Shown here piece by piece: positions 1 to 64,000 of a stretch of 64,000 bases of DNA. The DNA lies in NCBI GenBank assembly GCA_010093605.1, contig MU004193.1, positions 1-64,000 of the forward strand. The letters run 5' to 3'. Numbering within the stretch: the stretch's first letter is position 1; every line of letters begins with the position of its first letter. Under the pieces are notes generated by a model. It searched no databases and was not told the origin of the DNA. It saw only the letters and a list, made by a program, of their open reading frames with translations. This stretch comes from Lophium mytilinum (taxonomy: Eukaryota). The position numbers and the translations under genes were made by a program.

Positions 1-19
1 TTATAAAATTATTCTACTA

Positions 20-1120: not shown

Positions 1121-1149
1121 TAGTGGCAGTAGTATTGTGAACTATTTCT

Positions 1150-3450: not shown

Positions 3451-3762
3451 ATAATATTATATAGGTAGTAAAAAGGGGTTATATATATAGTACTAGCCTA
3501 TATATAATATAATTATCTTAATATATATATTAACTATAATAATTCTACTCTATATCTATATAGATATTATATTTATAAATAGTAAAGGTAGCTACTAGAT
3601 TTTAAGGTTTATATATTTTAGTATACTATAGACTAATAGGTGCGCATATAAGGTATCTAGACTACTAACTCTATTAAGTAATATACTTAATAGTAGCTTT
3701 AGTCTATATATAACTACCTTATACTCTACTATTTTATAATAATATAAAATGCGCTAAATATA

Positions 3763-4352
3763 AAGTATCTTCTTATTATTTATACGCGCGCATCTTTTTA
3801 GTAGTTATAGCTATTAGTAGTATAAAACTCTAATAGTTCTATATATAATATAACTCTATTAATATTTTTTTACTAATATCTTATCTTATTAATTATAACT
3901 ATTATCTATTATTCTTTTTATATATAGATAGTGCATTTAATATACTAGTATAGATTATACCTTTAGTATTATTTACATCTATCTCTTCTATTAAGGGATA
4001 CATATTCTAATTCTATAAAGATAGTAATTAGAACGCAGGCCCTATATACTAGTACGCCTAGTATCTTCTTATTATTTATGCGCATAAGTCTCTCTAGTAG
4101 TTATAGTTATTAGTAGTATAAAACTCTAATAGTTCTATATATAATATAACTCTATTAATATTTTTTTACTAATATCTTATCTTATTAATTATAACTATTA
4201 TCTATTATTCTTTTTATATATAGATAGTGTATTTAATATACTAGTATAGATTATACCTTTAGTATTATTTACATCTATCTCTTCTATTAAGGGATACGCA
4301 TTCTAATTCTATAAAGATAGTAATTAGAACGCAGGCCCTATACGCTAGTGCA
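3763..4352. repeat. Near-identical direct tandem duplication (2 x about 295 bp)
   Basis: About 3763-4055 and about 4060-4352 both run AGTATCTTCTTATTATTTAT...GTAATTAGAACGCAGGCCCTATA. Confidence 0.9.
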
Positions 4353-4599
4353 TCTACTAATAAAATAATTAAAATAGGCCTGCGTTTTAATTAATCTTAT
4401 ATATTAGCTTTTTTTCTTTATTAGTTTAATTTTATACTAGCCTATACTAATATATAAATAATTTACTATTATATCTTTTAACTAGTAATAATTAGAGTAT
4501 TTTAGTAAGAATTATAGTAGATCTAGACTAAAAGTAATATAAACTAATACTCTCTAGATAATAAAGCTTTAATATATACTTTAACTCTTTAAAATAAAG

Positions 4600-8153: not shown

Positions 8154-11041
8154 TCAACACATTCCACTGGTCCATGGTACACTGTAAAGGGTGTAGCTCC
8201 GCGTGCCTCCTACGCAGAAAAGGCAGCCAAATAAAAACTCTCACTACATCATTTGCCCATACCACATCCAGTAAATATTGTTGGCTCGTGTTCGGCCGGC
8301 GTCTGAGGCTTGAGAAGTGCAGCCCCATCCTTAATCTCTATCTTCTTGGTATTTGCGCTTCCATTAGGAATGCTACTAGGAGTGCTAGAAACATGCGCGG
8401 CATCACCAAAAACACCACCTGTATGACTGGCGCCCCGTGGCTGGTAGTACGGAGGCGCATCGTCGTAGAGTTCCAGCTCTCGAAGCTTGCCGAATTCCTG
8501 GAGAGCACCGTTGACCTCGCATGCATACTTGGACGTACCGAAACCATCGAAGCGAATCATCCATGCTGTACGAAATTAGCAAAGTCACCGATAACGCAGA
8601 TGTGAGATTGATTGTCAGCGAGGAAAATTGCATAGCTTACTGTTCGGGAATGGCACCATCTCGTCCCATTCTGCGGTAAGATACGTCTCCGTCTCCGGCC
8701 GCAAGACCTTGCTCGTATAGATCTTCTCGGCAATCTGTGGTTCACCGAGCATTTCGACCTCTTTCGAGATTCTTTGGATGCGCATCGGGGCCATGTAGTT
8801 GGTGTAACCCTCGGCGGAAGCATCAAGTTTGACTTTCTTCACTCGGCCCTGCGCATCGTGCCCCCGGCGTGCATTCCTCATTTGCGCGAAGATCTTGATC
8901 ATGGCTGTAACGCCCACCTCGGCGATGCGCTTGGGCTGGTAGTCGGCGAATTGGTCCATGGCGGTAGACTTGTGGTCTAAGAAGTCTGATTCTTTGGGCT
9001 CAACCCCAGCTTTTGCGGCAGCTTTCTAGACTGCGTCGTTGGCTTTGAACTGTTGAGACGTATCATTAGTCCTTTCGTGGTAGTTGAGGGTTGTTTTGAC
9101 GGCTGGGGTAGAACTTACAATGTCCAAGATGACCTTGTGATCTTTCTCGACCTTCAAATTGTTGCCTTCGCTGATTTTGTATTTTTTGATCTTGAGCGCT
9201 ACTCGAACCAAAGGAAGCTTAATGCTTCTACGTTCAACGTCCTCCACCAGTCCTCGGAGCTCTTGCTCGCTCTTCTCGTCGTCCTTGAATGCGAGCTCCT
9301 GCGCCTTCACCCATTTCGGCCTGCCGCTCAGTTGCTTGTGCGGGTTCTTTTGTGGATTCGCGAAGTCGTACATCTCTTCGAGAAATTTTTTGAGGGCAGA
9401 AGTGAACTATTTTGCGTTAGTATGTTAAGTCTTGGTAGGTTGTGATTCTTTGAAGCACTTACAGCGAGCACCGAATTGTAAGCAGCGTGAAGTCCCACGA
9501 AAAGCATTTTAGAAGCAGCAGCTGGAAGGCTCGGTTCATGCTTCAGCACTCGTTCTGCAACCTCGTAGCCGAGCTTAGTCATGGGATTGTCCTTCGGTGT
9601 GCCAAACCAGTATCTTGTTGCGCTCCATCGGTTCGCTTACCCAATGTTGCCACCAAGCACCAGATTGTACAGAGTCTCAATGGAAGTCTTGAATGCCTTG
9701 CGCCGTTTCAAGAGTTTGGTTTCATCGGCATTGTATGACAAGAAGACCTGACAATTTGAGATATGCTGATAGATCTCATTTTCGGAATGAGGCGCTTTCG
9801 GATACTTCGCACTTCGAATGAGATGGCCAAAACCAAGGAAGTCCGCAACATACTTAGTCACTACTGGAATGGCAAAACTGCAAAAGTGTCAGTCACAGGA
9901 GTGGAGCATGGGAGTGGAGCATGGGAGTGGAGCATGGGAGTGGAGCATGGGAGTGGAGCATGGGAGTGTCGACTTACTCTCTGGTGGCATCGATTTGCAA
10001 AGTCGAGCTGTTCATAGAGATGGATTCTTGTTTGATGATGTATCGCATCAGATCGGAAAAGTAACCCGTGATAGCCTCAGTGTCTTCCTTGAGCGCAGGT
10101 AGAATAGGCTTTGGCTCGGAATTGTGGGATGAGAACATTCCTTTAAAATCAAAGCATGTTGGGAAATTGGCAGAGTCCTTCAGTGCTGGGTGCACGAAAT
10201 TCGATGCATCCTTCAGTATAGCGGAGATCTTTTTGACCTCTGCCAGGTAAATTGGCTTCCATGGTTTCTGTGTTACCGAATCGCTAACGTCGAAGACAGG
10301 CGTGCCATATTGATCGGACGTCGTAGGCTTCTGCGACATCCTGAACTCCGGAGCATATCCTTGCTGCGCAGCAAATCTTGCATTCGTTTGTCTGGTGTAA
10401 AAGGGGTGGAAGAACTGGACGGAGTTGTATGGATACCATTCGGGAAATGCTCGCTGGATCAGTCGATGGAAAATAGAGCTCTTGCAGGTGTCGTTGTCAG
10501 GAGTGACCTCTTTCATACCCCAGGACGTCAAAGAGTTCGTGTTCCAGTCGGTTGTGTAGAAACGATCCGATCGTACAAGAGTGATAGCATCGGAGAAAAT
10601 TGCAGACCAGAGCGCAGAATCAACATCGCTAGGGCCGGGATCCACACCCATATTCGCGTCTGATTTGGAAAAGACACCTGGATAGAGTTCGATCTTATCT
10701 GCATGCTCATACAGGTCTCGCAACGCGTCTTGGATCTCCGCATTCTTGCTGACACTACCGAATGTTTGATGTCTTGGCGTGCCAAAGAAATCTCGGAAGT
10801 CATTGAGTGTGCCAATCTCCCACTTCCGGGCTTGTACAATGCCCAGGATCTCGACAGGCTTTAGGCACTTTGGTACGTTTCGAGGACCGAAGTTCGATAT
10901 TGGATCGTCCATTGCTTTCGTGAGGGCGTTAATCATATCTTGATCATCGAAAAGACCTGTGATGGGGTTGCGAGCGAAATCAAGCCCAGGTTCGCCATCA
11001 ATACCGAAACTGATTTCCCATGGCTGGTAATAGTAGCTCAT
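8154..11041 (-). pseudogene. Linoleate diol synthase / Ppo-like heme peroxidase-P450 fusion, apparently 5'-truncated (multi-exon)
   Basis: Peroxidase C-terminal motifs NFGPRNVP..VEILGI.QARKW..GTLNDFR.FFG..LYPG..FSDAITLVRSDRFYT.DW, followed by a degenerate P450-like region (FAQMRNARR...YLTAEW..MVPFP). No N-terminal peroxidase half (e.g. EFNLLYRFH) is visible upstream. Confidence 0.75.
9899..9967. repeat. 14-bp minisatellite (GTGGAGCATGGGAG-type) x about 5 inside an intron
   Basis: Directly visible between the splice donor at about 9976 and the acceptor at about 9865 of the LDS-like gene. Confidence 0.95.
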
Positions 11042-11465
11042 ACTTCGGCTTTGACCTTGACATCATGGATATCGGCGGTCGAAGTCCGGCATTCTTAAGC
11101 AGGGTAGCTCCTTCGGTAGTTAAATACTTCATCAAATCACTTGCGTGAATGACGAGGAGGTTCGCCGCAACTATTCCCGCGGGCTCGGCAACATCTGTAA
11201 CATCTGCCATCGACTCATACTTGAGCAACAAGTCTCCGAGCGGATCCTGCTTGATCCCGGATGCTGCGGCCATGCTGTCCATATGGCTGGTCGCAGTGAA
11301 GTCTTCGAGACTTTCCATGTCATCGGTGTCATCGCCAGACGCTTCTCGGTCGTAGATACATGACGTCGTCAGAGGCCGCCTGGCAAGAGTACAGGTGGCT
11401 CAAACCGAGTCAACCACGGGTTGGGCCAATTCCGAAGATAATTCGAAGCACTTCACACCGCGAGG

Positions 11466-12054: not shown

Positions 12055-14549
12055 TCAATCGCTCAAATCCCCCCAATACTCCTTCAAATCATCCATCCTC
12101 CACTTCGTCCCCCACCCCGTCTCATGCTCAATCCTCTCATAAGCTTCCAAAATCGCCTTGTGTTCACTCGGGTGACTCATGACCTGTCCCGCAATCCAAA
12201 GCGGCTGGATCGCATTCGTCCAGCATCCGTGATGCGTATTCGAAATCGAAATCGCGCATATCTGCCGCGCATGCCAGAGGATACTCCTCGGTTTCTTCAG
12301 CAATTTCGTGCTTCGGGGCCTCTTCTGCAGCATCAAGAGCGCCGCGGTGTGGTAAAGCTGGTTCCCCGATACTGCGGGACCATTCCCGAAGAGGAGCGTG
12401 GGAAAGGGGCGGTTCTCGTTAGTATCGGCGGGGATGCAGACGATGGCTTTCATCTCTTCGGGGCGCTCCGAGTACCAGTCTTCGATGTAGTTGAACAACT
12501 GCAGCCAACGCGATTCGTAAATGCTCTCAGAAACGGGGTTGGCGAAAAGATCGAGCGCTTCTGCCATTAGGAAGACGGCGAAGTTCGCGTAGGTGTCAAA
12601 GCCGGGACTGGATCGGAAGGCGTGGACGTCGTTTTCGATGTTGGTTCGAGATGCCCAGTGTCTAGCAGGAATCAAGGTCCTTTCGGAGGAGATGAGACCA
12701 CCGCAGACGTCCATTCGTGCGAAGCACCAGAAGAGAGCTTGCTCGACGCCTCCGACGCAGCCATTGATTCCTACAGCTTCCATCAGGGATGCACAGCCGT
12801 CTAAATGTCTTCGCCACTCTTTTGGAGAGCAGCTCAGCATCTCAAGGACGCAAAGTACTACACATGATGCAATGACGGCCGTGTTTCTTGTTTGAAGCTG
12901 AGGGAGCAGATGATGAATCGCTTCCTGGTAAAGCGCTAGACTTCTTGATGACTTTCTATTCATCTCTTTACGCTCCAACTGCCTAGCTGATAAGGCAAGA
13001 ATAGAGTACTTCAGATGCGTGTGCGATTTCGCCATTAGTGGAAGCATATGCTCGAAATGCCTTTGATTGTCGAATTTGTCGAGCCAAGGAGCCACCTCGT
13101 CGATCCAGTTCTTCCACAGCTCGTACTCCTCAAGAGGTGGCAGATCTACCGCTTTGTATATTCCATTTTGTGGCTGCAGATCCGGAAGTGTGGCAGAGGA
13201 ACGTCTGGAAGGATTCCATGTTGGAGCGCTGTGCGCATGAGTAACGCTTTCTAGACCCGGGGAGACGTGGCGTGATGGGGCATTGGAGCGAGCGGTGTTG
13301 ATGATGTGGGTTCTTAAAGTGCTATGTAGCTCTAGATATGTAGAGCCGGGTATAAATAGCCCGTCCTCGAATAAAGGATCTCCGTAGTCAAAGATGTCGG
13401 GCTCGATTGGAGTACCGTGGTGCTGAGCGTCTCCCAGTTGAATCGGAATATCAGATACATGAGGAGACGTCATGTGTGGCTGTGTGTCACGTAACGATAG
13501 TAGATTTGTCGCCGCCGTATGGGCGAAAGACTGGGAATTAGGAGACGCGGTGTATGCAAGCCGTTGCGAATTCGGAGACGTGGTTGAAGACTCCGCTTCA
13601 GTGGCAAACCCTGGAGATAGAAGTGTATTAGTGGGTTGAAATGGAGGAGATCCGAATACGATATCCGATGTCGTTGGATTTGAATAGGTTTGCTGTAACT
13701 CCGGCACCGGATAGTCAGCAGTAGACGCCGAAACACGCGCCTTTCTGGTGCTTTTTGTTGTTGGTCGTTCAAAGGCATGGTTCTGCGATGGTGGGGTGTC
13801 GGAAATGCGAAAAGTGTGACTTGATTCGATTGCTAGGTCCTCGTTCCAGTCGATGGCGGTCTCCAGGAAGCTATTCTCGCGCCAGTAGTCCCGAACAATC
13901 TCAGACGTAACGTCAAGAATCTAGATGCTGGTAAGTATTGTTCTGAGCGGCCGCAAGATACAGTGTCTCGTAATAGATGACCGTGCAGCTTCCCGCCAAA
14001 CAGACATCTGGGCCGATGTATCGCCCTTCAAGATCATATCCACCGCTCTGCCACTATCCGGAATGGCCTCTCGAGATTATCAACTGTTCTTTAGCTGCAC
14101 TTCCCTCAAGTTGGAGTTCTGAAGCAACTACGAGGCCCCACAGCATTGGCAGGAAAGTACACGGATACACATGACCAAAGGTCGAAGCTTGTGAAGAAAC
14201 GAAAAATCATCAACCAACATACCTCATACTGCCTCGGCCTCTTCCTCGCCCTCCCACACTTCATCGACGGATGATCGTCCTGGATGTTATGCGCATTCTC
14301 CGTCCTAAACGACAGCTGCGTCCGCCATTCACAAGCTTCCCCGCGCTTTTGACAATTGGAGCAGCACGGCTTGATCTCGTTGCCTACACAATCCTATAAG
14401 AAGACTGACGACTACACACCGAAGAAGTTGAACTCACACTTCTTCCTCCGCAGCCGACAATTCAAACACCCATTGCGCGTCCTAGTCCGTTTCTGTGGTC
14501 CGTCGTCCATGAGCTCTTCATCCGCGGGCGAGGCGGGGCCGGCTGCCAT
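12055..14549 (-). CDS. Zn(II)2Cys6 transcription factor with fungal-specific C-terminal TF domain (multi-exon)
   Basis: Exon 1 MAAGPASP..KRTRTRNGCLNCRLRRKKC, intron, then NEIKPCCSNCQKRGEACEW. The large last exon has APWLDKFD..HF...ALSARQL..WRRHLDG..FWCFARMD. Confidence 0.92.
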
Positions 14550-21897: not shown

Positions 21898-24193
21898 ATG
21901 GCTCCTTCTGCAATTCCCGTCGAGACGTTGAATCATCTTCCTCTTAAGACTGTCAACGGCAAGTCTGCTGCGGTAGATGATATTATAATTGAAGATGTAG
22001 AAAAGACGAATCTGGTGCTACGCACCTTCCGCTCCTTCATCGTGGATCTGTGTGAGCAGTTCAAAGGCGGACATCCAGGGTAGGTAGCTATCCAAAGCTC
22101 CTAGCATTTGAAAATAATAGTTCCAACCAGGAGTGCAATGGGAATGGCAGCCATCGGCGTCGCCCTCTGGAAATACATCATGAAATACTCACCCGAGAAC
22201 CCTTCTTTCTTCAACCGGGACCGCTTCGTCTTATCCAATGGCCACACATCTATCTTCCAATACATGTTCCTCCATCTTACGGGCTACAAGGACATGACTG
22301 TAGACCAACTGAAAACATACCACTCCACTCGGACGGACTCGCTATGTCCTGGTCACCCCGAGATCGAGCACGAAGGTATCGAAGTCACCACCGGCCCATT
22401 GGGTCAAGGCATCTCGAATGCCGTCGGTCTCGCGATGGCAACGAAGCATCTCGGGGCCGTATACAACAAGCCTGGGTTCTCGCTGGTCGACAACATGACT
22501 TGGTGTATGATCGGTGATGCTTGCCTCCAGGAGGGCGTAGCACTCGAATCTATTCAGCTAGCTGGTCACTGGAAGCTGAACAACCTGACCGTCATCTATG
22601 ACAACAACCAGGTCACTTGCGATGGGTCTGCCGATATTGCGAATAGTGCTGAAGATGTCAATGCTAAGATGCGGGCTTGCGGGTGGAACGTTATCGATAT
22701 CTTAGATGGGAACCACGATGTGGAGGCTATTGTCAAGGCTTTGGTTGCCGCACGATCGAGCAAGGACAAGCCGACATTCGTCAACGTACGGACCATAATA
22801 GGAATTGGTAGCCAGGTTGCGGGCGATGCGAAAGCTCACGGTGCTGCTCTTGGCCCGGCTGATGTTGCGCATGTGAAGAAGCAGAATGGGATGAATCCGG
22901 ACGAGCACTTCGTCATCTCCGATGAGGTCTATGCCTTCTTCCGGGAAACGAAGAGTCGAGGTCGCCAGTTGGAGAAGGAATGGAATGAACTAGTGTCAGC
23001 GTATGCGGCCGAGTATCCTGAACTCCACGCCGAATTTCAGATGAGGGTAAAGGGTGAGACGGAGGACTGGATGAAGCTCATTCCCTCGAAAGAAGAGCTA
23101 CCTACCACACCTACAGCGACTCGAAAGTCAGCGGGGCTAGTTTGCAACCCGCTTGCTGCAAAGCTGCCGAGCCTGATGGTCGGAACCGCAGATTTGTCTC
23201 CTTCCGTGAACACGGCATGGAAGGACAAGGTCGACTTCCAAAACGTCAGTACAACTCCTCCTACTAACCGCATACCTCGAAACTAATCCCCCACAGCCCG
23301 ACTTCCGCTCCGCCTGCGGCCTCAACGGCGACTACACCGGCCGCTACATCCACTGGGGCATCCGCGAACACGCCATGGCCTCGATCAGTAACGGCCTCGC
23401 CGCCTTCAGCAAAGGCACCATCCTCCCCATCACCTCCACCTTCTTCATGTTCTACATCTACGCCGCGCCCGGTATCCGCATGGGCGCCCTCCAACACCTC
23501 CAAACCATCCACATCGCCACCCACGACTCCATCGGCACCGGCGAAGACGGCCCCACCCACCAGCCCATCGCCCTCGCCTCCCTCTACCGCGCCATGCCCA
23601 ACCTCCTCTACATCCGCCCCTGCGACAGCGAAGAAACCGCCGGCGCGATGATCGCCGCGCTGAACGCGAAGAACACCCCTTCTATTCTATCGCTTTCGCG
23701 CCAAAACGTCCCCCAGTACCCCTCGTCGTCCTCCCGCGAAGGCGTCCAGCGCGGCGCCTACGTCTTCGTCGAAGAGCCCAACGCAGACGTCACCCTCATC
23801 GGCGTCGGCGCTGAAATGGTCTTCGCGATGAAGACGCGCGAGCTGCTCGCCTCGAACCACAACATCCGCGCGCGCGTCGTCAGCTTCCCGTGCCAGCGGC
23901 TGTTCGAGGCGCAGCCGGTCGAGTATAAGCGGGAGGTGCTGCAGTACCGCTCGAACGCGCCGCGGGTGGTGGTTGAGGCGTATGCGGTGAATGGGTGGGA
24001 GCGGTATGCGGATGCGGGGATTAGCATGAGTTCGTTTGGGAAGAGCTTGCCTGGGGCGGCGGCGTATAAGTATTTTGGGTTTGATGAGGAGAGCATTGCG
24101 CCGAGGGTGCTGGAGTTGGTGGAGGAGGTGAGGAGGGAGGGGGTGGGGTGTTTGAGGGGGGAGTTTAGGGATTTGAATGGCGGGATGAAGTAG
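21898..24193 (+). CDS. Transketolase family, dihydroxyacetone synthase (DHAS)-type (2 introns)
   Basis: Motifs GGHPG, DRFVLSNGH, SLCPGHPEIEH..EVTTGPLGQG, ThDP motif GDACLQEG...YDNNQV, THDSIGTGEDGPTHQP. The C-terminus GGMK has no PTS1. Confidence 0.95.
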
Positions 24194-35991: not shown

Positions 35992-37350
35992 ATGCCAGAA
36001 ATCGCGGAAGATCTCCCTAGACATGTAGGCAAGCTGCTCATGCGCCATGGCGACTTGCTCGAAGAGAGCCGACCGGAGAATGCTCTACCTGGAACTGAGG
36101 CCCCGGACGATGGTCCCGCTGAGGGCACCGAGAGGGCCAACATTGTTACCGGGTTCGATTCAGCGATGAAAGCAGACCCACTGCCCCGACTTGAAGCGGA
36201 GAAACTCCTAGAAGTCGCTCTGGGCCTCAAGTTCTCCTCTCTCGGGCCATCAAGAGGTGGCATCAAACGCTGGGCTTCCCCAGCCCGCGAAGATTTCGCA
36301 AAGGCGTAAGTTTCACCCTTGCTTCTTTGCATCGTGAACCCCCTTGTCTCACAAAACTCTAGTCACCCTAATATTGCGCATAACGCCGTCTTTGTCTCGA
36401 TCGACTTCGAGAGCCTTTCCTGGATGGACGACACCGGACACCCTCAGTACGGCAAGATCACGGAGCTAGGGCTTGCTTTCCTCGACACGCGAGCGCTGAA
36501 GGATGTTGATGAGCCGACCGAGTGGGTCGAACAAACCCGTGCAAAGCATTATATCGTCGACGAGTACGCCCATCTCCGGCCGATGGTCGTGGATAAACGA
36601 AAGCATTCTCTCGACAATGCCGACAAGTTCGACTACGGAACTAGCGAGATCGTGCCATCCAGAACTCTCGGTGATATTTTGAAGAACGCATTGCGTATCC
36701 CGGATGACGCTGCATCGAATGCTGAGAACGAGAACGCGGAGATCAAGTACCGCCCAATCATCCTTGTCGCCCACGCGTACCAGAACGAGGACAAATACCT
36801 ACGCAGTGAGCTCGATATCTCTGCTGCCGACCTTGACGAGATCTACGCCATTATCGATACTCAGGTCATGATGTGCGGGAAGGGGCAGAAGGCACCTGGC
36901 CTTCGTCAGTTACTGGAGAACAGGTACGGTATGCATCCCGTGAATATGCATAACGGCGGCAACGACGCGGTGTATACTCTCGTCTTGGTCTTGGCGCACG
37001 CGGCGAGGAAGGGTTGCGGAGTGGAAGAAAAAGGCGGAGTTGTGGATGAGTGGCTTAACGCCCTAAAAATAAAGATTGCAGAAGAAGCTGGGGGCAGATG
37101 TGAAAACTGTGGTGGGCTTGGGCATTCGGACGAAGCGTGTAAGGAGCCAAAGGGAGCAGGGCTGCATGATGTTGCAAAAGCTCTTGCCGGGCTGAGGCTG
37201 GACAGGGCCGACGCTGTGCAGGAGTTCGAGCGTACGGTATGTGCTGCTTCCCCTGAGCCTGCAGAAGCTGATACGCTTGGCACTAAGGCTGAAGGGTCTG
37301 GTGTCCCGGATGATAAAGAGAAAGGCGAAGTTCTACCGAAGCTGGAGTGA
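35992..37350 (+). CDS. DEDDh 3'-5' exonuclease, QIP (QDE-2-interacting protein)/Gfd2-YDR514C-like, with C-terminal CCHC zinc knuckle (1 intron, 36306-36362)
   Basis: Motifs FVSIDFE, ITELGLAFLDTR, FDYGTSE, IILVAH, IIDTQ, HNGGNDAVYTL; knuckle CENCGGLGHSDEAC. Confidence 0.85.
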
Positions 37351-42169: not shown

Positions 42170-43772
42170 AACTCTAGTCGCAGATTTTTAGTACGATGTC
42201 ACGAATCTCTATATGCTTTTCCCTCACCGCTTATGGATATTTTCAGATACGTGAAGGGGCTGTCTTGTATGGACACCGCCGTCTCAGATTGCTCGGCGTC
42301 TTTATGGAGTGCGCAAACCGTTGAGCCTTTTTTTCAGTCAGGTTTCTGAGATTACAACGAAGCCTTACCCAGGTACTAAAGAATCGTTTTGCAGACCTAT
42401 GAAAACCCACGGGGCTTATCTGGTGATTTTTGGATGAAGCTGTTACAGGAAAAGAATAGAGATTGCTGGAAATCGACATCTTATAAGTGCACATAGTCAG
42501 GCTTGCTTTGACGGTTTTATTGGCATATGTATCATGTCACACGCCCATGAAGTGTCATCTTCTTCGCCCAAACGTGGGTATAGCAGAGTCGAGACTCATG
42601 ACCTTTGCTTGCAGTGTGCAAAAACGCATGCAATGTAAGACTAGCCAGGTGTTTGTGCAGGCTCTGGCCCTTCTGGCTCACTTGAAATGCTTCGTCATGG
42701 GGCCCCTAAACACGGCCCCCCCCGTAGAGGTAGGCTCAAACGATTGTTGGCGGTTGGATGCCTCTTCTTCCGTGATTATTGGGACCATTTTGATTAGAGG
42801 ATTCAGTGACCACCATTTTGCAAACATAGTGTGGCAATTGATACTTCGAAATATGCAGTCATATTCGTTGTCAACCATGATGGGGCGCCGGAGCCGCACA
42901 TAACGATCGGTGTTTCCCTAATGCGCAGCCATGATAATGAGAAGATTCTTGTGGACGCTAGGGAGATCGGCAGGAAGACGGTCGTCGAGCGATGGAAGAC
43001 TAGCATCTTCTTGTTTGTCGAATTTAATCTGTCCTATCTCCTTACTACACGTAGACTTAGGATCCTTTCGCTCAACGGTCTCCATTACCTCGCCGATGTC
43101 GAACCAATCAGCCATAACAGCTTGCCGCTATGGGATATCCGAATAGATAGTGAAGAGGCTGGGCAAGAGGCGATGCCGTTGATTTGAGTGAATGGTGGGT
43201 TAGCAGAATTCTAGACCCTGATTTCGCCAGAACGGAGTTCCGAGGTATGGCAGCCTTATCACCACGCAGAATTCGGATCTTCCGTAGTCTATTGCCTCAT
43301 TACTATTACGCTTTTCCAACGTTTCGTGGTCAGTGATAGCACTCCGCAACCTAAAGGAAGTAAACTCTTAGGTTTCTCACTTTCTTATAGGTACCGCACG
43401 ACGAGAATTGCTTTTGCATAGCCTAAAGCCAAGGGCTAGCGGATTTACTGCTAAAGTCAGCCTGCTAATTCAAAGATTTTAGAGCAACAGGGCTGGCTAT
43501 ATCGTCAGAAAACGGGAGGTCGCGGCAATTGAAAGTTACATTCACTAGCTGTACAGTAGATATATTTACAATTGCCTCCCACTGCTTAAAACCTTTGAAT
43601 GTGCTTTGACAAGCTTGAAAGACTTCATCTGTGTACACAGGTTTGCTACCTCCTAGGGTCTTTCAACGCATATTTACTACGTCAAACTTTCCCACTCCAA
43701 CACATTTTGTAAACCAAGCACTTTTCAACTTCACCTCCCCTCATGCCACCCCTCATAGCCGTTCTCATCCAT

Positions 43773-45191
43773 CTACAACCCCTTGACGATCTCGGGCAGC
43801 AGCTTCTCCGTAAACTGCCACAGCTTACTCGAATCCTGAGCATGCCACGCAGCGCCCGTCCAGAATGTCTTCTTCCCTCCTTGCAGCGCATACAGCTTCT
43901 TATAGAAACCACTCTTGAGTGCCTCAAGCGACACCGTGAACTCGAACGGTGAGTGGCTATGGAATATCACGAACTCAGGCGTCGTGGTATTCAGCGTTCC
44001 CGCAGTCTTGAGTCTCTCGACCGCCGCAATGATCGCAGCTTTGGCGTTGGCATCACCAATGGGAGCTGGCGTACAATACTTCACGGTGAAGAGGCCTGAC
44101 GTATCGGTAGACTGAACGAAATATGGACCAGGAAGGAAGGGAACGTTCCACGGGGTGTCCGCGCCGAAGTTGCGAACTTCAATGCCGTCGGGGATACCGG
44201 TGTTCTTGATGATGGAGGAGTAGTATCCGGCGTTCAGAAACTCGCTAAAGATGTCCCTCTCATTTAGGTCGAGGTCCCAGCCGGGCAAGTTCTCGAGCTT
44301 GGGCGGGATACTCGAGAGAAGTTTCTTAGCGATGATGAGTTTCTTCCCTGTGGGAGTCTGGACCTGAACCTTGACGCCGAGGGGAGAAGAGCGGTCGACG
44401 GAGAGGATGGTGGTGCTTAGAAGTGCTCTCTTGCCTAGTATTTTTTCGGCAGCTTCGTAGGGTGCTCGGTTATTGTGCGAAACGGTAGCTTGGTAGTTAT
44501 TTTCTTGCAGTGCTTTGATGCTGGCCAAGCTGACAAGTTTGAAGACGTAGAGGGTCAAATGATCTAGGAAAGGGCCCATTCCATTCCCGAAAATGTTGAG
44601 GATCTGGACAGCGCCTTCAATATTGTATTTCTTGACGAAGTCACCGAAAGGGATGAGTAGATCCTCCGGTATAGGATCCGGCAGGTCAAATGAGTCTTCG
44701 AGGTACGGGTACTTGGATATTTGCTCCACGTAGTTAATCAATCCTTGTGTGACATTCCCTGAGTAGATGCTTGTCACAGTCTTACCAGTACGGAAGTCAA
44801 CCGGGATGGTGGTGAGCGTCGTTGTGCCCGCGCGAGCGATATCGGTCTGTTGCAACTTCACCCCGAGTCGTTTGAAGTAATTTTGGACCACTGGGATGTC
44901 GTACCAGGCGACGACACCCATCTCGGTGTTGTTCCCAGACGCAGGATCAGTGTAGGTGTATGTGTGTCCTCCGAGATAGTCGTGGTGGTCCACAACGATG
45001 ACGCTCTTCCCCAAGTCGGTCAATCGAATCGCGCCATAAGTTCCACTTCCTCCTCCACCGAGAACGACCACGTCCGTCGTGATGATATCCGGGGGCCCGT
45101 ATCCATCTATGCTGGTAGTTCTCTCGGTCATTGCGGCGGTTGTTGCAGAAATTGCGCTGACTGCAGCAAATAAAAGTGAGGACACCCTCAT
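43773..45191 (-). CDS. Secreted flavin-containing amine oxidoreductase (CpaO/beta-cyclopiazonate dehydrogenase-like family)
   Basis: Signal-like MRVSSLLFAAVSAISA; FAD-binding DVVVLGGGGSGTYGA..LGGHT; C-terminal LYALQG...TFWTGAAW..DSS.LW. Confidence 0.9.
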   Translation of the reverse strand: MRVSSLLFAAVSAISATTAAMTERTTSIDGYGPPDIITTDVVVLGGGGSGTYGAIRLTDLGKSVIVVDHHDYLGGHTYTYTDPASGNNTEMGVVAWYDIPVVQNYFKRLGVKLQQTDIARAGTTTLTTIPVDFRTGKTVTSIYSGNVTQGLINYVEQISKYPYLEDSFDLPDPIPEDLLIPFGDFVKKYNIEGAVQILNIFGNGMGPFLDHLTLYVFKLVSLASIKALQENNYQATVSHNNRAPYEAAEKILGKRALLSTTILSVDRSSPLGVKVQVQTPTGKKLIIAKKLLSSIPPKLENLPGWDLDLNERDIFSEFLNAGYYSSIIKNTGIPDGIEVRNFGADTPWNVPFLPGPYFVQSTDTSGLFTVKYCTPAPIGDANAKAAIIAAVERLKTAGTLNTTTPEFVIFHSHSPFEFTVSLEALKSGFYKKLYALQGGKKTFWTGAAWHAQDSSKLWQFTEKLLPEIVKGL

Positions 45192-46435
45192 TTCAAAGGC
45201 GAACGGATTAAATGCGGATGTCTGGTAGAAGCAGAGCAAACTAGTGAGCTGAGGTACTTCTTCTACATCATTACGAACGGCTCATATATATATGGGTGAT
45301 TCCATGCCGACAAAATCTTGCCTGATGTGTTCTTCAAGCATATGAATTGCGCAAACAAAGGGGTGACCAATAGCAACCCCTGCTTCGGCCGGAACGACAC
45401 CAGCGGAACGACACCAGCCGAAGCAACATGCATAAATTCAGTCTTCATGGACCGCATGTACCTCCGACCAGACTTTCATGGTGTCCGGAAGAAGGGAGAC
45501 ACCTTGAAAGAGTCCCAAAATGCACGTTCCCCGCATGATCTGCACTGCAGGCCTTACCACGTGGGGGAGAGGTGCATGATGACGAGCTTTCATAGCCGTC
45601 CGGGTCCTAGGATTCTGCAAACTTTGACGGAAATCTGCTCTTCCATTCGGCTCGCGATGTTCCTGGAAGTCCGTAGGATCTCGGATCGGATGGGCTCGTA
45701 CGCGGGAATGATCCTCGACCGCATCTGAAGGGGTAAGATGTTGAGCTCAACATCTTCGCGTTCTAGCTGATACGCTTCTCGTCTTTGCTGCAATTTGCTA
45801 GTCTTTCGCTTTGGATCTCAATCCTATGCTCCCTTTCAATTAGGCCTCGAAGCATAGTATCTCAGCTTCAAGAGAGACTATGCAAACTAATTTTGGTTCG
45901 TAGAAGTTCAAGGAGCAAGTGCGCCATACCAAAAACATATAGCACCTCTGCAAATATCTCTGTGTAATACTATTGCTTGTTCTGTTCCATTCTAGCTACC
46001 GAGACCTATAGTGATGAGTGAGAGTGTAATTCTACTTACGCCCCTCCGTCCTCCGCCGGTGACTCCAGGCTATCGTGTCCACGAATATTGGGCGTTTGAT
46101 CTTGTCCGTATTGCTTTAAATTGGGCTAAGACACCCGTGATAGTGGCTGGGAATTATGCGGGAACCCTAACACCGACGACGTTTTACATATACTAAGAGA
46201 AAACCCCTCTGTCCTCTTTTTTCTTCGCCTAGGATTAGCGTCGCTACAGCGTGGGCAATAACCCGAGGCGGGCAGGTCTACAGTCGGATACTATCCCGTT
46301 TAGCTTAACAGGTTGGTTGGTGCTGCCTTAGCTCGCTGAAAAATCTTTGATAGGGTTTTTCGTACGCAGTTTATGCCCTCATATGCGATCTTACAACACC
46401 CTCCGGACCCCACAGTACCTACACGAAGTTGAGAG

Positions 46436-46927
46436 GGGCTCAAGCCCGTGTTGTAAAAGGTCGAAATAGGCTTCTGCCCTTGGGCTGGGTTGTTCAAGTT
46501 TGCCAGGTACGGGCTAATTGTCGAATCGTCGGGTCCACGCCCGTGTAGTAAATCGTCTAACCAGGGTTCATTTTTGGATTGAGTTGTTCAAAACTGCTAG
46601 GTACGGATGAATTATGGATCGTCGGGTCCAGGGCCGTGTTGTGAAGCGAGTAATTAGGCATTTGTTTTCGGACTGGGGTAAGTCTGCTAGGTACGGGTTA
46701 ATTACCGAATCGTCGGGTCGTGAGTGTTGTGAACCCTACAAGTAGGCCTCTGTTCTCTAATTGGGCCGTTTCAGTCTGCTAGGTACGGCTTAATTGCCGA
46801 ATCGTGGGGTTAAAGCCCGTGTTGCTTGTAACCGATCTTAAAAGGTCATTCTTCTTGGTTCAGGTTGCTTATATCTGCTGGGTACGGATGAATTACCGGA
46901 TCGTGCCGTCGGACTAACCTTGGACAG
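46436..46927. repeat. Non-coding array of 5 conserved about 35-50 bp cores (plus one partial) separated by variable about 40 bp segments
   Basis: Core YTGCYRGGTACGGNYNAATTRYSGRATCGT. Its (A/G)GGTAC lies at 46505, 46599, 46689, 46781 and 46880 (periods 94, 90, 92, 99). Confidence 0.9.
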
Positions 46928-48729
46928 ATCGTGTCTTATATGCAACTATTCTCCCCGCATTTGCCACGGATACGATTTAGACATTAGGAGTCCTCAAAAT
47001 GCTCGTAATGACCGGTGGCTTTGCCAGTCGTTGAGTTGTTCGCGGTCAGGATAATCGGAGTCAGACGGAGTATACCGGAACGTCGCTTAAGAGCTGGGCT
47101 AGGGGGCTTAGTAGTCATCTTCGTAGCCGACATAGTTGCATTGCAGTCAATTAGGGGCTAGCTGTAAGAAGCGCAGTTGAGCGGTTATGTCGGAACCCCA
47201 TGGGGTGTGGAAACACGAGCTAATCACGTACCCCAGGACCAGCGTCGTCACCTTCCACATTGCGCGCAGCCCAATCGTCAACCCCCTGAACTCATGCAGA
47301 TAGCCATCCTACAGAGCTCGCACAATTTCTTGGCCCACTCTGTAAGCAAGATCATTCGAAAACAATGCCAAGCCTCCATTTTGCACCTTTTAGTGAAGAA
47401 GTTGGGACGCGGAACCACTCTGCCAGGGCGATGACCTTTAGTGACTGTTGAAAGGACACTGCACCCCCGCACACGCATCTGCGATTTTAGAGACTATGCA
47501 ACTGGCGCAAGATAGGAAAAAGTGACGTACTGGAGTGAGAGCGCAGCAAAGGATCCCAAACTATCAGCCACTTTACTCACAATACCAGGCTTGACAACAT
47601 CAGTTTTCAAAATACCTATCAAATCTATGTACGATGAAGAGCACAACAACTGTAGTTGCCAACTACTGCTGCCATCCTTCTCCGCTGCCTCTACTCCCCT
47701 CGTGCCCCCGATATAACCAATGCTCGCGCATGCCTACTGCCTTTCTATTCTTATGACAGGCTTGAAACATTACTAGGCCACCATAGATGATGACTTTCAG
47801 GTATACGCAGAAGAGATCTCATAGTTGCCCACCGCTTGAAAATCCTCGCTCGCTTTCCACCTCCGCCTCCGTGACGATCACGGTCCAAAGGCCAACTCAC
47901 CTGGACATCTTGATACCCCCCTCCTTCGAGAGATCCGCGAATAATCACGCGTAATGCCCATACGCAATTCCAAGGCTAGGCACGCGAGTTTAGCGACATT
48001 AACTCCCCAAGCCTTGCCACTTACGTTATCGACATGCTCTCCAGGGCCACCGCCTCGAAGAATCTCCTTCAAGAAAACAGCGCCTCAAAGAGACACTGAC
48101 CGGAAGTACATATAGCGGCGACAACGAGTAGGGACAACGCGACACCGCCCGATTTGGTGTATAACGCGGACGCGCGCTATCGTATGAGTACGAGGATATG
48201 CGCCAGCTCTTCCAAGACTCCGAGAAAATCTCCGTGAGTAAGCAGAAAGATGCCGCGGCTTTGCTCTATGCATTTCCTGTGCTGCTATAGTAACTGTCAG
48301 ACTAGGTATTGACAATGTGATACGAAGCGAAGGGCTGCAAAAAACCGAGAGATCACGATATTACCAGAAATATTTTGGCGTAGGAGGTGATACGGGAGTG
48401 TCATGTGTCTAGCACGTGGATATCCAGTCACAAGCTTATCAGCCCCATCATAGGTCGGGAACTGCGGGACTTCCGAGCTTTACGGAAACCCATTAAAGCG
48501 CCTCGACTGTCCCGGGCCTCATATTCACGCGTCCTAGATAGATTCTCAATCCATCGGAATTCGAGAGCATCTTCCTACTCTACGCCAGCTTCTCCTCGAA
48601 CGCGAGATGATATTAAAGCCTATCTTTCCACTGCTTCGTGTCCATCGTAGGCAAAGTAATACACCTGACTAACTAACCTCCTCTCTGAAGTGAGCCAAGC
48701 GCTGTCTAGGTGCTTTTGAAATTCGCCTT

Positions 48730-51700
48730 TTATCGCCACCTTGCTCTTAAATAGGTTATTGAGTCCTCCCAGCTGTCTCTCATTTCCTTTGTCGTAAACC
48801 ATAGTGAGAAGTCTCCGCTGCTGACAATGAAATAAAGCGGGCAGTTTCTTTCTAGGTTCAGAACAAGCTTCCAGGCTCCGGGACCTATTGCACCCGCTAT
48901 TAGATACGGCAGCAATGGTAGAGAATTAGGGAAAGCCATGCATACTCGGCGCTTTAAGCTCATTACGTCTGATAACAGAGATGTGCTGAAGCTGTATCCT
49001 CATTTTCACAACGAAAACTTGTGGAGGCCCACGTCCTTCTGTAAGCAAGAGCACTTGGTTGTTAAGAAACATGGTATACTATGCGACGGAAATTGCGTAT
49101 TAGCCTCTTGACATCACGAAAACCTGCATCGGTAACATACCACGGGCTGCGATCTAATGGCGAGAACGGCTTGTTCTACAGGATTAAGACTGAGTCTGGT
49201 AAGTCCTTGGCGAAGCACAGGCCCAAAGGTATCAGCATCACCAGGTCCGCCATGCACTTCCATGAAAACAGGATTTTTCATTGGCCGAAAGGCGTTTGCT
49301 AGAACGTCCGTCCATTTCTGGGAAAATACTGTCCTCGATGAAAGAGCCTTTTAGAAATTTCAAATTAGTAAAAGAAGTTACGAAAAGAAGGATCTTACTT
49401 TGGCGATCTTTCCATATTCTAGCATACGGTGTACGGGAGAAACAATGAGAGTCTTCAAGCTGGGAGAATCCGTTGAAGAGCTGACGTGTTGCTGTTTATG
49501 ATCTGCTGCAGCGATTTCGAAACTATCGGCAATATATGGCAGACTGCGTGCGTACGATATAACAGCTTGAACTTGATCCTCATTAGGCACAAGTAGATCA
49601 AACCAATGTTCGGCATTGGTATCAAAAAGAAACATTTCTTCGACTTCGATCAAGAATCGTTGGTGAAATTCCAAGATAGTGGTCAGGTCTATCAGAATCG
49701 AGGACGAGGCATCTTTTGTTACCAAATGTCGCGAAACTGCCGTGTGTGCGATTTCGCTGAGCACCTCTAGGTTACAGACGTAAAGGCGTTCTGATTCCAC
49801 GAAGTTGCTGATAATAGCGTTCAAACTAGGATTGGGGTTTTTCACAGCAAGTGGTAATGGGAGATCTTCCCAGGTGATGTCTTCAATGGACGGATTCGCC
49901 TTTCCGCTATTCCAGAGTAGGCAAAGAATACGGTTCAGACCTTTGATGACCTATTGCACCTGTTAGGTCATCCCTTGATGCACGTCAAGAAGCTTCTACG
50001 AAGAATATTCCGTCGTGCCAGCAGTATGTCCTCAGGGTTACCACTCACCTTGACAAAGCCCATGATACTATCCTCGTATAAGTCTCTTGACGTGAAACAT
50101 TCGGCAGCCGGGACATGTAGATACCGAAAGCAAGTTCTCAAGAAGAGAGCAGATGCAGCTCGCGACTGTGCGGCATCCACGACGGAAAATGGGGCAAAAC
50201 CAGGGATATCGAATAGAAGTAGCAAGGGTACACCTCGCCTCAAAAAACGCCACAGTACGTCGACAGCATTCTTTTTTCGAGAGTAAGAAAGAGACTTATG
50301 TGCGTCTTGGTCCATCCATTGACGGCATCTCTCTTCGCCGCGGAAGATTGATTGAAGTCTGCGACACTCTTTGAGGAGCGAGAAGGGGGGCTGAGAGGAA
50401 GATTCAGCGACATGCTCCATTTTATCACGTTGCGGGTCTAGTTTGTCCGAGAATGCAACATCTGCTGCGAAAGCATCCGGACCAGCACCGGGTGCACAGC
50501 ATGAGGATACAGCTCTGTAACAAGACACGAGCTCTTCAGAAGTAGGTCGATGATGTGGTTCGGAATCAATCATTGAAACAATTTGGCTCAGAAATGGTTG
50601 GAGTTCGAGAAAATGAGGGTCTACTGTATTGAGATCTATGACCTCATGGAGCCAGAGAGCCACGGTGGGGATATTAGCTTGGTAACATCTCCAAGGTTGA
50701 TCTTCGTTAGACTGGATAATGGCCATGAGATCTTCCCTTTTAGAATCTCGGCCTGATGCAGCCAACACTCCAAGCATCTCTACAAAAACACAACCGAGAG
50801 AAAATATGTCGGTGCTTAGCCCCCGTTTACGATCAACTTCAGGTGCCGCATACATCCTCGTGAACGAGGTGCGGGAGTCAGTTTCGGCCTCAGCGGCATT
50901 CCTGTAAGAACGAGTGATGCCAAAGTCTGCAATATATACTTTGTACGAGAGCTCGTTCGGGGATGCGTGACTTTGCCAGATGGTCTTGACAAGCAAGTTT
51001 TTCGGTTTTATGTCCATATGCTTAGTGGCCTTTTGGTGGAGGAAGTTCAGTGCATGAGCAAGACAACCAAAGAACTTCGTCAAGGCGTGGAGCTTTGCGT
51101 CGTTCTCGTAGTCCGGAGAACCTGCTAGCCCGAGCGGTCGGGTAATGATTGACTCCATGAAGCCCTCAAGGTTATCTTCGGCTGCTGGATACAACAGTAT
51201 GCTCAGGTTTTGTTTGAAAATGTACGTTCCAACTACTCGGATTATATGAGAGTGCTCAACTCGTTTCAGATGCTTGACTTCTTTGATAGCTTCGGAGCGT
51301 TTCATACGACGGTTGAAGATGGTTTTGCGGGCTAACAAGATACGTCGACATTTCACACTTTCAACAAGGGCAGTCGCAGATGTGCCAAGGACACTCTCAG
51401 GAACAAGGAGTTCGTCGATCCGTGATTTCTCGCCAGGGCCGAATTCAGCGTGTTCGCCCCGACCAGACCAATCCTTCTCCAACAAGGGCTCAGGTATTAG
51501 TCGCTCGGAATCTAACAGCTTATGCCACGAACTCCTGCAAAAGTCCATCAGTGCGGACCACTTCGATATGAAAATATCATCACGTACGTTGAGGCCGTGG
51601 AGTTGCCATTGAGCTTTCGAGACCCCGACAGCGCTGTTCGAAAGGTATCAATGCTCTTGATGCTGCCTCGGATACTTCTGGCAGTGAAGAAGGTCGAGAC

Positions 51701-61452: not shown

Positions 61453-61658
61453 TGTAATATTTCCAATCACGTAATGTAAGAATTTAAAGGACAATAGATG
61501 TCAATTCTATGTAGGAATCTAGCTAGGCTATATACACGTTGGGGAGGCCCGTGCAGGCCTTAATTATACTAGATCTATATAGGAAAGCATTCCTATAGTA
61601 GATCTATACATCACGTGCACAACATCTAAATATTAACTATATATTAAGAATTCTATAT
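61453..61658 (+). repeat. Dispersed repeat family B, copy 3 (partly RIP-mutated)
   Basis: TATTTCCAATCACGTAAT..GGACAATAGATGTCAATTCTATGTAGGAATCTAGCTAGGCTATATA..CCGTGCAGGCCT. Many differences from the other copies are C>T/G>A. Confidence 0.9.
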
Positions 61659-64000
61659 CCTCTTCTTCTAGATCTAATTTACCATTAAATTACGTTTATA
61701 ATAGTACGTCGCGCTTACAGCTTTACGCTATGCGCCATTAGCATGTTAGGCTATTAGCTTCTTTAGAAGCTTTAAAGCTTCCAGGGGCATATAATACTAT
61801 AAGAGGTGCGTTAGCAGGCGGTAATATTACAGTAATATGCCTAAGAGGGGTTTAGAATTCTTTAGAGGCCTACTACTACGTTAGTAGGGGGGATAATAAA
61901 GGTATTAGGATATTTAATAGCTTAATAGTAAGGAAGAATTAGAAGAGATTATAAAGTGTTTATAATAGAGGGAATTATAAGGTAATATAAATATTAGCAT
62001 GCTGGCGCATATTAGGTTCTAATGCGCAATTAGAGCTATAATAGCTAATAATAGGCTTATTAGAGGTCTTATAAAGTCCCTTATAATCTAGTAAGAAGCT
62101 TATAATCTTGTATAGGTCTAAGAAGCTGTTAGTATATTACAGAGCAGTAAGTAGTAATCTAGAAGTAATAGATTTAAGAATCTAAAGTATATATAAGGCC
62201 TTCTTAACGCTCTTACACTCTTTCTTCTATACTTAACTTTCTTCTTTAAGGTTTAAGCTTCTTTTAGCTTTAAAGGTTTATTAAAGACTCTTATAGCTTC
62301 TCTTCTTATTACTATTATCTTTTCTTTATTAATTCTTTTATTAGGACTCTCTCTCTCTTAGCTTCTAGGCTGCTTCTCCTTACTCCAAGTCAGCGTTATA
62401 ACGTTGCTTAATACCTAGCCAGGTTCTATAGCCTCTAGCTTACTCTATAGAAGAGGTAGAGATAATAGAGATAATAATCCTTTAGACCCTAGCTATAGTT
62501 GCAAGGTTCCGCGCTCTTATAAATTCTTAGGCATCTTAGCTTATAAAGCCTTATAGGCCTATAGTAAGTTCCTAATAATAGTTTAGCTCTTTCTCTTAAT
62601 AAAGCTAATAAGATCTAGTTACTATTATGCTTATATTAATTATCAACCTTTTAATAGTCTAGAGGTTCTATAATCTATACTATACATAGCTAATAGCCTT
62701 TAATAACTCTATCCCACTTCCTTAAGCCTTCCAACGCTACGCTATAGCTTCTAATTATTTAAACTACACTAAATACCCCCTAAAGTTTAAAGGTAGTAGT
62801 AGAGCTTAAAGAAATATACTGCTTTAAGGGTTCCTTAGTAATATTAGGGATAATAAACTAATTTTAAATAAGAACTATAGCTATAATTCGCGCTTTATAG
62901 GGCTTCTTAAATAGTATTTAGGCTTAAGAGTAGATTATAGTAAGAATTCTAGGGCTCCTCCTGCCTTTAGGGCCTGCAACTACTACCTAAGAATGTTCTT
63001 AGGAGGCTGTTAGTTTAGTAAATATATTTAAGCTCGCAATCTAGATAGTTCTCCTCTCTACTAAGGATCCTGTGTGGAATATTATTAGTAGGGCAGTAAG
63101 GAGACTTATTTATTCTAAGGTAAGTTTAGCTTTACTTTTAGAGTGTCTTAGAACTTAGCTAACACCTATTATAGAAGGATAGACTCTAATAGCTTATTAG
63201 AAGACTACTAGGGCTCGCGTTTAATAAGGTCGCTATAATATTACTAAGTTTATATCTTCTCTTTATAATTAAGAATCCCTTAAGAACCTAGCTAAGAATA
63301 TAGTACGCTTAGCCTTAGCTATATAGCTGCTAATAGAATTAATTTAAAGAAAGACTACTATACTACTACGTAATCTAGGTATTCCTTATACTCCTAAATC
63401 TCTAACAGCTTAATATCGCCTATAGGGCTCTAGTAGTGCTTCTACTTAGGCTTCTAGTTTAAGATCTAGCTTCTAGTAATTATCCGCAGCTATATCGGGT
63501 TTAGGAAATATAGCTACTTTAGGTTCTAGCACTTAAGGTCTAAGGTAATACTCCCTAATCTTTCCTACTTAGCCTTTAACTTCTCTAACTTCTTTAACCT
63601 CTTATTATTCTCCTTTAGGTTCTCTATAGCGCTCCCGAGAGCCTACTTCTAATATACTATTAAGCCGCCGCTTATCCTAGTTATCTATTAGTAACAATAA
63701 CAACTCTACTAGAGAGACCCCTCTAAACTCTACTTAGTATTAGATGGGCTCTCTAAATGCTATTCTCTAAAAGAATAGGGCTAGTAAGCATAGCTAAAAT
63801 ATATTAACTTAGAGCGCGCCTCCAAAACAGCCTTAGAAGAATAATAATAGCTATTCTAGTAGTAGTAGTAGCTATAAAAGTCCTAGTAGAAGGAGTTCTA
63901 GTAGTAGAATAGCTACCTAGAAGAACTAAGAGTGTGTCGGCTTAGCTAGTATTAATGGAAAAGCGTTAATTTTCCCTCCCCTTCTAGATATAAGAAGGAT
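61500..64000. other. RIP-mutated block, probably a relic gene or transposon of unrecognised type
   Basis: TpA excess, CpA/TpG depletion, no ORF of 60 aa or more. No diagnostic transposase or recombinase motif was recognised. Confidence 0.85.

Follow-up and report, generated by a model that had tools for sequence, protein, structure and literature searches.

A diverged tandem array with paired CGG-N8-CCG sites in a gene-free gap of a fungal genome, tentatively read as an old cis-regulatory module

Introduction

The window analysed here is a 64 kb stretch of DNA from Lophium mytilinum. It is fungal-type eukaryotic DNA, with spliced genes in public RNA contigs, and it contains a 2.4 kb gene-free gap (45192-47623) in which well-kept and variable blocks alternate at a regular period. 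What is this array, and why have parts of each unit been kept while the remainder has diverged? The locus had been titled a repeat-spacer-like array in an earlier note made from the letters of the sequence, which proposed that the conserved core was under selection either as a multimeric structured RNA processed into units or as an array of protein-binding sites, the latter of the zinc-cluster type or belonging to a mobile element. In this work, the architecture of the array, the divergence of its segments, its folding potential, its occurrence elsewhere and its neighbourhood were examined, and the possible explanations were weighed against each other.

Results

Architecture and boundaries of the array

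The repeat finder returned five head-to-tail units, whose starts are given in Table 1, at spacings of 94, 90, 92 and 99 bp, and no inverted pair was found among the array copies. The invariant heptamer GGTACGG occurs at 46506, 46600, 46690, 46782 and 46881 in units 1 to 5, respectively. A core pattern of 17 specified bases had four matches in the window, all of them in the array and on the plus strand, compared to 0.02 expected, and this number was reached by none of 100 shuffles; unit 2, which has lost one base, does not fit the pattern. A partial copy at 46436-46497 was recovered at E=1.8e-6 with a profile built from units 1-5, from which the partial unit (unit 0) had been left out. Five cores at a period of 90-99 bp and a partial copy at 46436 had been described before, and both are borne out by these matches. 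When Tandem Repeats Finder was run at a score of 30 (the lowest), 84 rows were obtained in the window and none overlapped the array, because its units are too diverged.

To the left of 46432, the columns where unit 0 would have its core shared 0.31-0.39 identity with the true cores. Beyond the core of unit 5, identity to the other linkers was 0.25-0.38, compared to an expectation of 0.26 from composition. Owing to the low identity at both edges, both stretches were taken as flank. The array extends from approximately 46432 to 46915, and not to 46927 or 46968; of the extent first assigned to it (46436..46927), the left edge holds to within a few bases and the right edge has to be drawn in. If the phase is read as site B, linker and core, the array is composed of five complete units. 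The array periods are not all multiples of three, and none of the 13 ORFs in the gap had a Pfam match at E<0.1; the array was therefore regarded as non-coding. The GC content was approximately 0.50 both at the array and in the gene-rich segment.

Table 1. Units of the array and flanking genes, in positions of the window.
Feature	Position	Strand	Content
Partial unit (unit 0)	46432..46498	+	site B with one mismatch (GGG-N8-CCG at 46435), GTGTTG, linker 0; profile match
Unit 1	46499..46592	+	degenerate site A (CGG-N8-TCG at 46510); exact site B 46530-46543; linker 1
Unit 2	46593..46682	+	site A with a 1-base deletion; exact site B 46623-46636; linker 2
Unit 3	46683..46774	+	exact site A 46694-46707 (CGGGTTAATTACCG); linker 3
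Unit 3, site B			lost through a 3-base deletion and substitutions
Unit 4	46775..46873	+	exact site A 46786-46799; one-mismatch site B (GGG-N8-CCG at 46806)
Unit 4, linker 4			longest linker; unit of 99 bases
Unit 5	46874..46915	+	core only; exact site A 46885-46898
FAD oxidase gene	43773..45191	-	single exon; ATG at 45191; beta-cyclopiazonate dehydrogenase-like
Kinase/CDC24 calponin/RhoGEF gene	47624..51647	-	Pfam domains; 3' end faces the array, approximately 0.7 kb off

Two CGG-N8-CCG palindromes in the ancestral unit

The conserved block of approximately 50 bp reads TGC-TAGGTACGG-N3-AATT-N3-G-N-ATCGT, followed by CGG-N8-CCG and then by GTGTTG. It holds two CGG-N8-CCG palindromes per ancestral unit, site A and site B, which lie 20 bp apart. 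Site A (GTACGG-N8-CCGAAT) is exact with AATT inside in units 3, 4 and 5, as had been claimed for these three copies, and site B (GTCGG-N8-CCGTG) is exact in units 1 and 2. Within approximately 480 bp (46435-46898), the array contains five exact and three one-mismatch sites, the latter being site B of unit 0, site A of unit 1 and site B of unit 4. At least one exact site was retained in each of units 1-5, and half of the ten ancestral sites are broken. The whole window contains 19 exact CGG-N8-CCG sites, compared to 10-14 expected per 55 kb. As the units share one ancestor, the eight sites of the array are not independent, and their enrichment reduces to that of one ancestral two-site unit.

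The two sites have been kept in different ways. In site B, the spacers vary (GTCCACGC, GTCCAGGG, GTTAAAGC and GCTCAAGC) while the triplets are constant, and conserved triplets around a free spacer fit a zinc-cluster dimer site and would not be needed by an RNA stem. In site A, the left CGG and the AATT of the spacer are invariant, and the right CCG is altered in two of the five units (1 and 2). Conservation is highest at TGC, GGTACGG, AATT and ATCGT; TAGGTA also lies outside the triplets. The right CCG of site A belongs to the less conserved columns of the core, and ATCGT, outside the triplets, is better kept.

A solitary exact CGG-N8-CCG with flanks resembling those of site B (GTCGG-N8-CCGT.TAG) was observed at 46285..46298 on the plus strand, 150 bp to the left of the array and out of the 92-bp phase. 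Its surroundings matched unit 1 around site B at 19 of 30 positions by manual count, and it may be a chance occurrence or an older decayed unit. Elsewhere in the window, AGGTACGG-N8-CCGTGAAT (36921-36945, with GGTACGG-N8-CCG at 36923) resembles site A. This string has 10 specified bases, for which approximately 0.1 occurrences are estimated per window; it lies inside a DEDDh-type exonuclease ORF and was judged to be a chance match. The motifs of XlnR (GGCTAR and CGGNTAAW), the CGG-N8-CGG direct repeats of AmyR and PnPf2-M2, and PnPf2-M1 (RWMGGVCCGA) were compared to the core by eye and rejected as misfits; GGCTAA occurs only in unit 1, and the linker string TAGGC resembles only the first half of PnPf2-M1. 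Reading AG/GTACGG as a 5' splice-site-like or U1-binding string is speculation.

The core has diverged less than the linkers

Identities were calculated over units 1-5 for the core and over units 0-4 for everything after the core. Mean pairwise identity fell along the unit, from 0.803 in the core (36 columns, 3-38) to 0.679 over the 14 columns that follow and 0.494 over the 49 columns of the linker. Of 20000 column permutations, 1 matched the best 50-column window and 11 matched the best 36-column window. When units 1-5 were used throughout, the identities were 0.80 in the core and 0.41 in the linker, respectively, and none of 20000 permutations reached this contrast. Gap cells were also distributed unevenly, with 4 in the core compared to 50 in the linker. 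With gaps counted as differences, the Jukes-Cantor distance was approximately 0.23 in the core and 0.84 in the linker, and the core would be changing about four times more slowly than the linker. These findings uphold two claims of the earlier note, that the linkers are far more variable than the cores and that the core has been kept more strictly than the linker, and divergence is not uniform across the unit. The cores themselves are not identical, their pairwise identity ranging from 0.67 to 0.92 across units.

The linkers have nevertheless kept a common origin. Their identity of 0.49 compares to 0.26 from composition, and a repeat family of 99 nt at 72% (D3) spans whole units. The linkers are thus mutually homologous, which indicates that the units arose via duplication; tandem duplication rather than spacer capture had been suspected from their residual similarity. 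The repeat-spacer-like title was misleading. The closest pair of units differs by segment: units 3 and 4 for the cores (0.92), units 0 and 4 for site B (0.93), and units 0 and 1 for the linkers (0.62).

Repeat-induced changes of the RIP type were considered as a cause of the contrast between core and linker. Transitions and transversions in the linker stood at 111:113, and the RIP target dinucleotides (CA+TG) numbered 1-4 per 36 nt of core compared to 7-8 per 54-63 nt of linker. RIP was rejected as the cause, since half of the linker changes are transversions and the targets are only moderately rarer in the core. Some constraint on the core is fairly probable, and the 50-bp block is protected either selectively or mechanistically.

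Tests of RNA structure

A search of Rfam at E<=10 over 44000-49000 gave four weak matches, none of them inside the array, and no tRNA was found by ARAGORN in the whole window. The fold z-scores of the five units on both strands (ten folds) ranged from -1.22 to +1.22. The consensus fold was a 6-pair hairpin of -3.06 kcal/mol with no compensatory pairs. Conserved C/D boxes and a conserved T-run terminator were not found in the units, and a T5 run was present in unit 1 only.

Two hairpins had been proposed for the units, the second of which was thought to vary in sequence while its pairing was kept. The four strings quoted in its favour are present (units 0, 1, 2 and 4), but the covarying stem is not: none of the 10 pairs in the two hairpins changed on both sides, the stem letters GGG/CCC are the same throughout and the loop alone varies. 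The covariation score of the two proposed hairpins, 0.140, was lower than the shuffled mean of 0.169, with 426 of 500 shuffles scoring at least as high. In addition, pairing in unit 2 requires a shifted register, and the second hairpin is missing from units 3 and 5. The second hairpin is the second CGG-N8-CCG palindrome, site B. These findings speak against a structured-RNA array, and the proposal of a multimeric RNA, structured or processed into units, gained no support from them.

Occurrence elsewhere

Both strands of the 64 kb window lacked a second copy of the array, the next match of the unit 1-5 profile having E=2.2. In the two DNA runs that contain the locus, only the locus contigs matched the array at a likeness of at least 80%, in a search in which pieces of 25-26 nt elsewhere were detectable. 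No length variant of the array was seen in these two runs, which represent one sample and possibly the source of this assembly. The exact 21-base core pattern gave no stretches in metagenome contigs. A two-core pattern gave 13 metagenome loci, which were rejected because each of them proved to be an unrelated tandem repeat in which the short motif happens to occur. There were 43 single matches in prokaryotic genomes and four in viral contigs, none with a second match, which is about the chance level for 17 specified bases by our own estimate.

One further run (X4) represents a relative, with contigs confined to 43762-45286 and to small pieces at or beyond 47452. In the coding sequence of the oxidase, the relative differed by 5-7% (36 of 587, 51 of 968 and 32 of 477 letters), and many of these differences were spaced at multiples of three. 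We infer, without claiming proof, that the duplications of the unit (linker distance approximately 0.84) are probably older than the split from this relative.

The neighbouring genes

The predicted product of the FAD oxidase gene has the Pfam domains NAD_binding_8, FAD and Amino_oxidase, and it matched beta-cyclopiazonate dehydrogenase (PDB 9vex_A) at E=1.2e-78 over residues 65-498, which is nearly full length. The translation begins with a signal-peptide-like MRVSSLLFAAVSAISA. A TATA-like CATATATATATG is located approximately 95 bp upstream of the ATG, and the array approximately 1.24-1.72 kb upstream of it. On the other side of the gap, spliced RNA contigs (run X3) extend over 47624-48285 and 48365-49952 of the kinase/RhoGEF gene and reveal three introns, with CT..AC on the plus strand; apart from this gene, the coverage of run X3 is confined to a short piece near 43274-43421. 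Since both flanking genes are on the minus strand, the sole promoter in the gap is that of the oxidase gene, which is the likely target of an element located there.

The only zinc-cluster-type regulator seen in the window is a Fungal_trans_2 ORF at 12055-13920, 32 kb from the array. A scan for bacterial-type promoters and terminators gave no promoter-like and one terminator-like match, compared to 0.9 expected; for fungal DNA such a scan carries no meaning.

The introns of the kinase/RhoGEF gene are short (51-62 nt). A 559-aa frame at 49968-51647 on the minus strand encodes protein-kinase and CDC24 calponin-type domains, and a RhoGEF domain follows in the adjacent downstream ORF (49378-49950). 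Fusion of a kinase to a Cdc24-like exchange factor would be an unusual arrangement.

Other features of the window

AT-rich blocks (GC 0.22-0.34) with degenerate tandem and dispersed repeats are present at 1-6000 and 61500-64000. Among their repeats are one of 173-bp period at 22-943 and two copies of a 296-bp unit at 3764-4349 with 95% matches. The blocks resemble repeat islands degraded by RIP, with a gene-rich segment of normal GC content between them. A perfect 13-bp tandem repeat (GGAGTGGAGCATG, 5.5 copies, 100% matches) at 9898-9968 adjoins an ORF at 9974-11062 on the minus strand that encodes an animal-haem-peroxidase-type domain. Transketolase was found in two overlapping frames on the plus strand, 22105-23286 and 23210-24193, which indicates an intron or a frameshift near 23210-23286. 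At 43274-43421, two stretches of 25-26 nt located 97 nt apart were matched, with one mismatch each, by other contigs in both DNA runs, and also by a 4078-nt RNA contig of run X3 at a depth of 765; the 97 nt between them are equal in length and diverged in sequence. The pattern suggests a short conserved piece that also occurs in a strongly expressed paralogue or repeat at another place in the genome.

Discussion

The array is tentatively read, at something short of an even chance, as an old cis-regulatory module that was duplicated in tandem and carries Zn2Cys6-type sites; selection on it, its binding by a protein, the nature of that protein and the gene it acts on are inferred. Protein docking is favoured because of the palindromic CGG/CCG content, the position on the promoter side and the failed RNA tests. 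Of the two functions first put forward, binding sites for a protein fit better, as both palindromes are of the form CGG-N8-CCG and are 20 bp apart, and they stand here as a prediction. An ancestral unit of approximately 92 bp would have been duplicated to five copies, after which a block of approximately 50 bp would have been held under purifying selection while linkers of approximately 45 bp drifted almost to randomness. The 20 bp between the two palindromes would correspond to about two helical turns and would place both on the same face of the helix. Dimers of a Zn2Cys6 transcription factor would dock on the CGG-N8-CCG sites, a second factor would probably read the invariant AATT and TAGGTA parts, and the five copies jointly would form a multi-site upstream activating or repressing region. 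The target would probably be the secreted FAD oxidase gene.

Sites of this form are known from other fungi. ClrB of A. nidulans is reported to bind CGG-N8-CCG on the mndB promoter, and loss of either triplet abolished binding (PMC13267753); predicted ClrB/CLR-2 sites of the same type are given in PMC8313289. Binding of BcSpd1 to CGG-N8-CCG in a gel-shift assay is described in PMC9280406, and PMC4006717 names CGG-N8-CCG as a possible GliZ site. Like the sites of ClrB/CLR-2 and BcSpd1, the array has inverted CGG and CCG triplets with an 8-bp spacer, here twice per ancestral unit and in a fungal upstream region. The spacing has been kept while the sequence of the site B spacer varies, as in Zn2Cys6 sites, with binding at the array being predicted from sequence. 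In contrast, five to eight sites in a fixed tandem frame of 92 bp would be an undescribed layout for ClrB/CLR-2 and BcSpd1. Unlike in ClrB/CLR-2 sites, the best-kept letters of the array (TAGGTA, AATT and ATCGT) are located outside the triplets, and the neighbour is an FAD oxidase and not a cellulase or mannanase.

Several observations count against the docking reading. A simple CGG-N8-CCG site would leave the best-conserved letters unexplained. Because these letters lie outside the triplets and the CCG of site A is altered, a second or different reader must be assumed. The approximately 20 invariant positions exceed what a single factor would normally read, and the loss of half of the ancestral sites is the same as would result from neutral decay at the rate of the core. 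In addition, 1.2-1.7 kb is a long way from the ATG for an upstream element in a fungus, the one zinc-cluster-type regulator of the window is 32 kb distant, and the neighbouring oxidase is not a ClrB target of the cellulase type.

The arrangement itself has parallels among fungal promoters. According to PMC8471628, five tandem copies of a 126-bp enhancer raise the expression of PdCYP51A in Penicillium digitatum. The array resembles this enhancer in consisting of five head-to-tail upstream elements of approximately 100 bp with one gene downstream, and it resembles the tandem upstream elements TR34/TR46 of A. fumigatus cyp51A (PMC5146965). The PdCYP51A and TR34/TR46 duplications are recent, near-identical and fungicide-selected, whereas the array studied here is old, with linkers 49% alike and differential decay. 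Differential decay implies long-term maintenance and not recent amplification.

The main competitor, somewhat less likely, is a neutral decaying minisatellite, in which a unit of 92 bp was multiplied by slippage or unequal exchange and has since drifted without function, its core being re-homogenised by short-tract gene conversion or later partial duplications, or the mutation rate being uneven along the unit. The head-to-tail units do share one ancestry, and the edge copies are truncated at an arbitrary phase like those of ordinary tandem duplications. The change of closest pair from core to site B to linker is what patchy conversion would be expected to leave. The cores are far from uniform, half of their CGG-N8-CCG sites are broken, and with only five to six copies the numbers are small. 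The core also has somewhat fewer RIP target dinucleotides, and there are RIP-like AT-rich blocks at the ends of the window. However, a four-fold rate difference across an uninterrupted block of 50 bp, as found in only 1 of 20000 permutations, is not the uniform divergence of such a repeat; whole-unit duplication or unequal crossing-over would have homogenised the linkers equally, which is not seen. The share of transversions among the linker changes speaks against RIP, and the indels avoid the core too. Conversion repeatedly restricted to the same 36-50 bp would involve unusually short tracts.

The remaining explanations carry much less weight. Tandem protein-binding repeats are present near the ends of several families of DNA transposons, and a remnant of a mobile element, in the form of subterminal repeats bound by a transposase or of a tandem repeat from inside a degraded transposon, is a very unlikely source of the array. 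Degraded repeat blocks of RIP type do occur at both ends of the window, but the best match outside the array was not significant (E=2.2), the DNA runs yielded nothing beyond the locus contigs at the likeness given above, the only inverted pair consists of 15 nt at 87%, 1248 nt apart, the 13 ORFs of the gap contain no transposase or other Pfam remnant, and the GC content is normal (0.50). The mobile-element terminus considered earlier thus lacks a second copy in the window and the DNA-run contigs, an inverted partner and a transposase remnant. It is very unlikely that the array would be transcribed and cut into unit-length small RNAs with the core as a conserved handle and the linker as a variable segment; the layout of conserved and variable blocks at a fixed period would suit such RNAs, but the Rfam and tRNA searches, the unremarkable folds and the lack of compensatory pairs do not, and linkers that are homologous to each other were not acquired. 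The specific form of this idea, a fungal repeat-guide analogue in which one transcript would be cut at handles of 36-50 nt into RNAs of approximately 90 nt with fast-evolving guide or decoy tails of 45 nt, and in which the units would stem from tandem duplication instead of spacer capture, is barely conceivable. The likeness to CRISPR arrays is a visual one, of conserved and variable blocks at a regular period, whereas the array lies in a eukaryotic genome, its "spacers" share homology, its repeats are 67-92% alike, and there is neither a cas gene nor a stable repeat hairpin.

A further parallel comes from another kind of tandem repeat. In alpha-satellite DNA, the CENP-B box is a short protein-binding box that is kept inside otherwise diverging monomers, and the array likewise has a short block, predicted to be bound by a protein, kept in diverging tandem units. 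Alpha-satellite forms megabase centromeric arrays in mammals, whereas the array described here has five units at a single locus in gene-rich fungal DNA.

If the array is neutral, it would show how a conserved core can be mimicked by just a few tandem copies, and no RNA-like or CRISPR-like call should be made on such a pattern from the letters alone. If the core is a selected docking platform, the array would be a natural enhancer in several copies with a long history of maintenance. It would also point to the regulator of a secreted flavin oxidase, and in a filamentous fungus it would offer a ready-made dosage series of zero to five units for the study of cooperative zinc-cluster binding.
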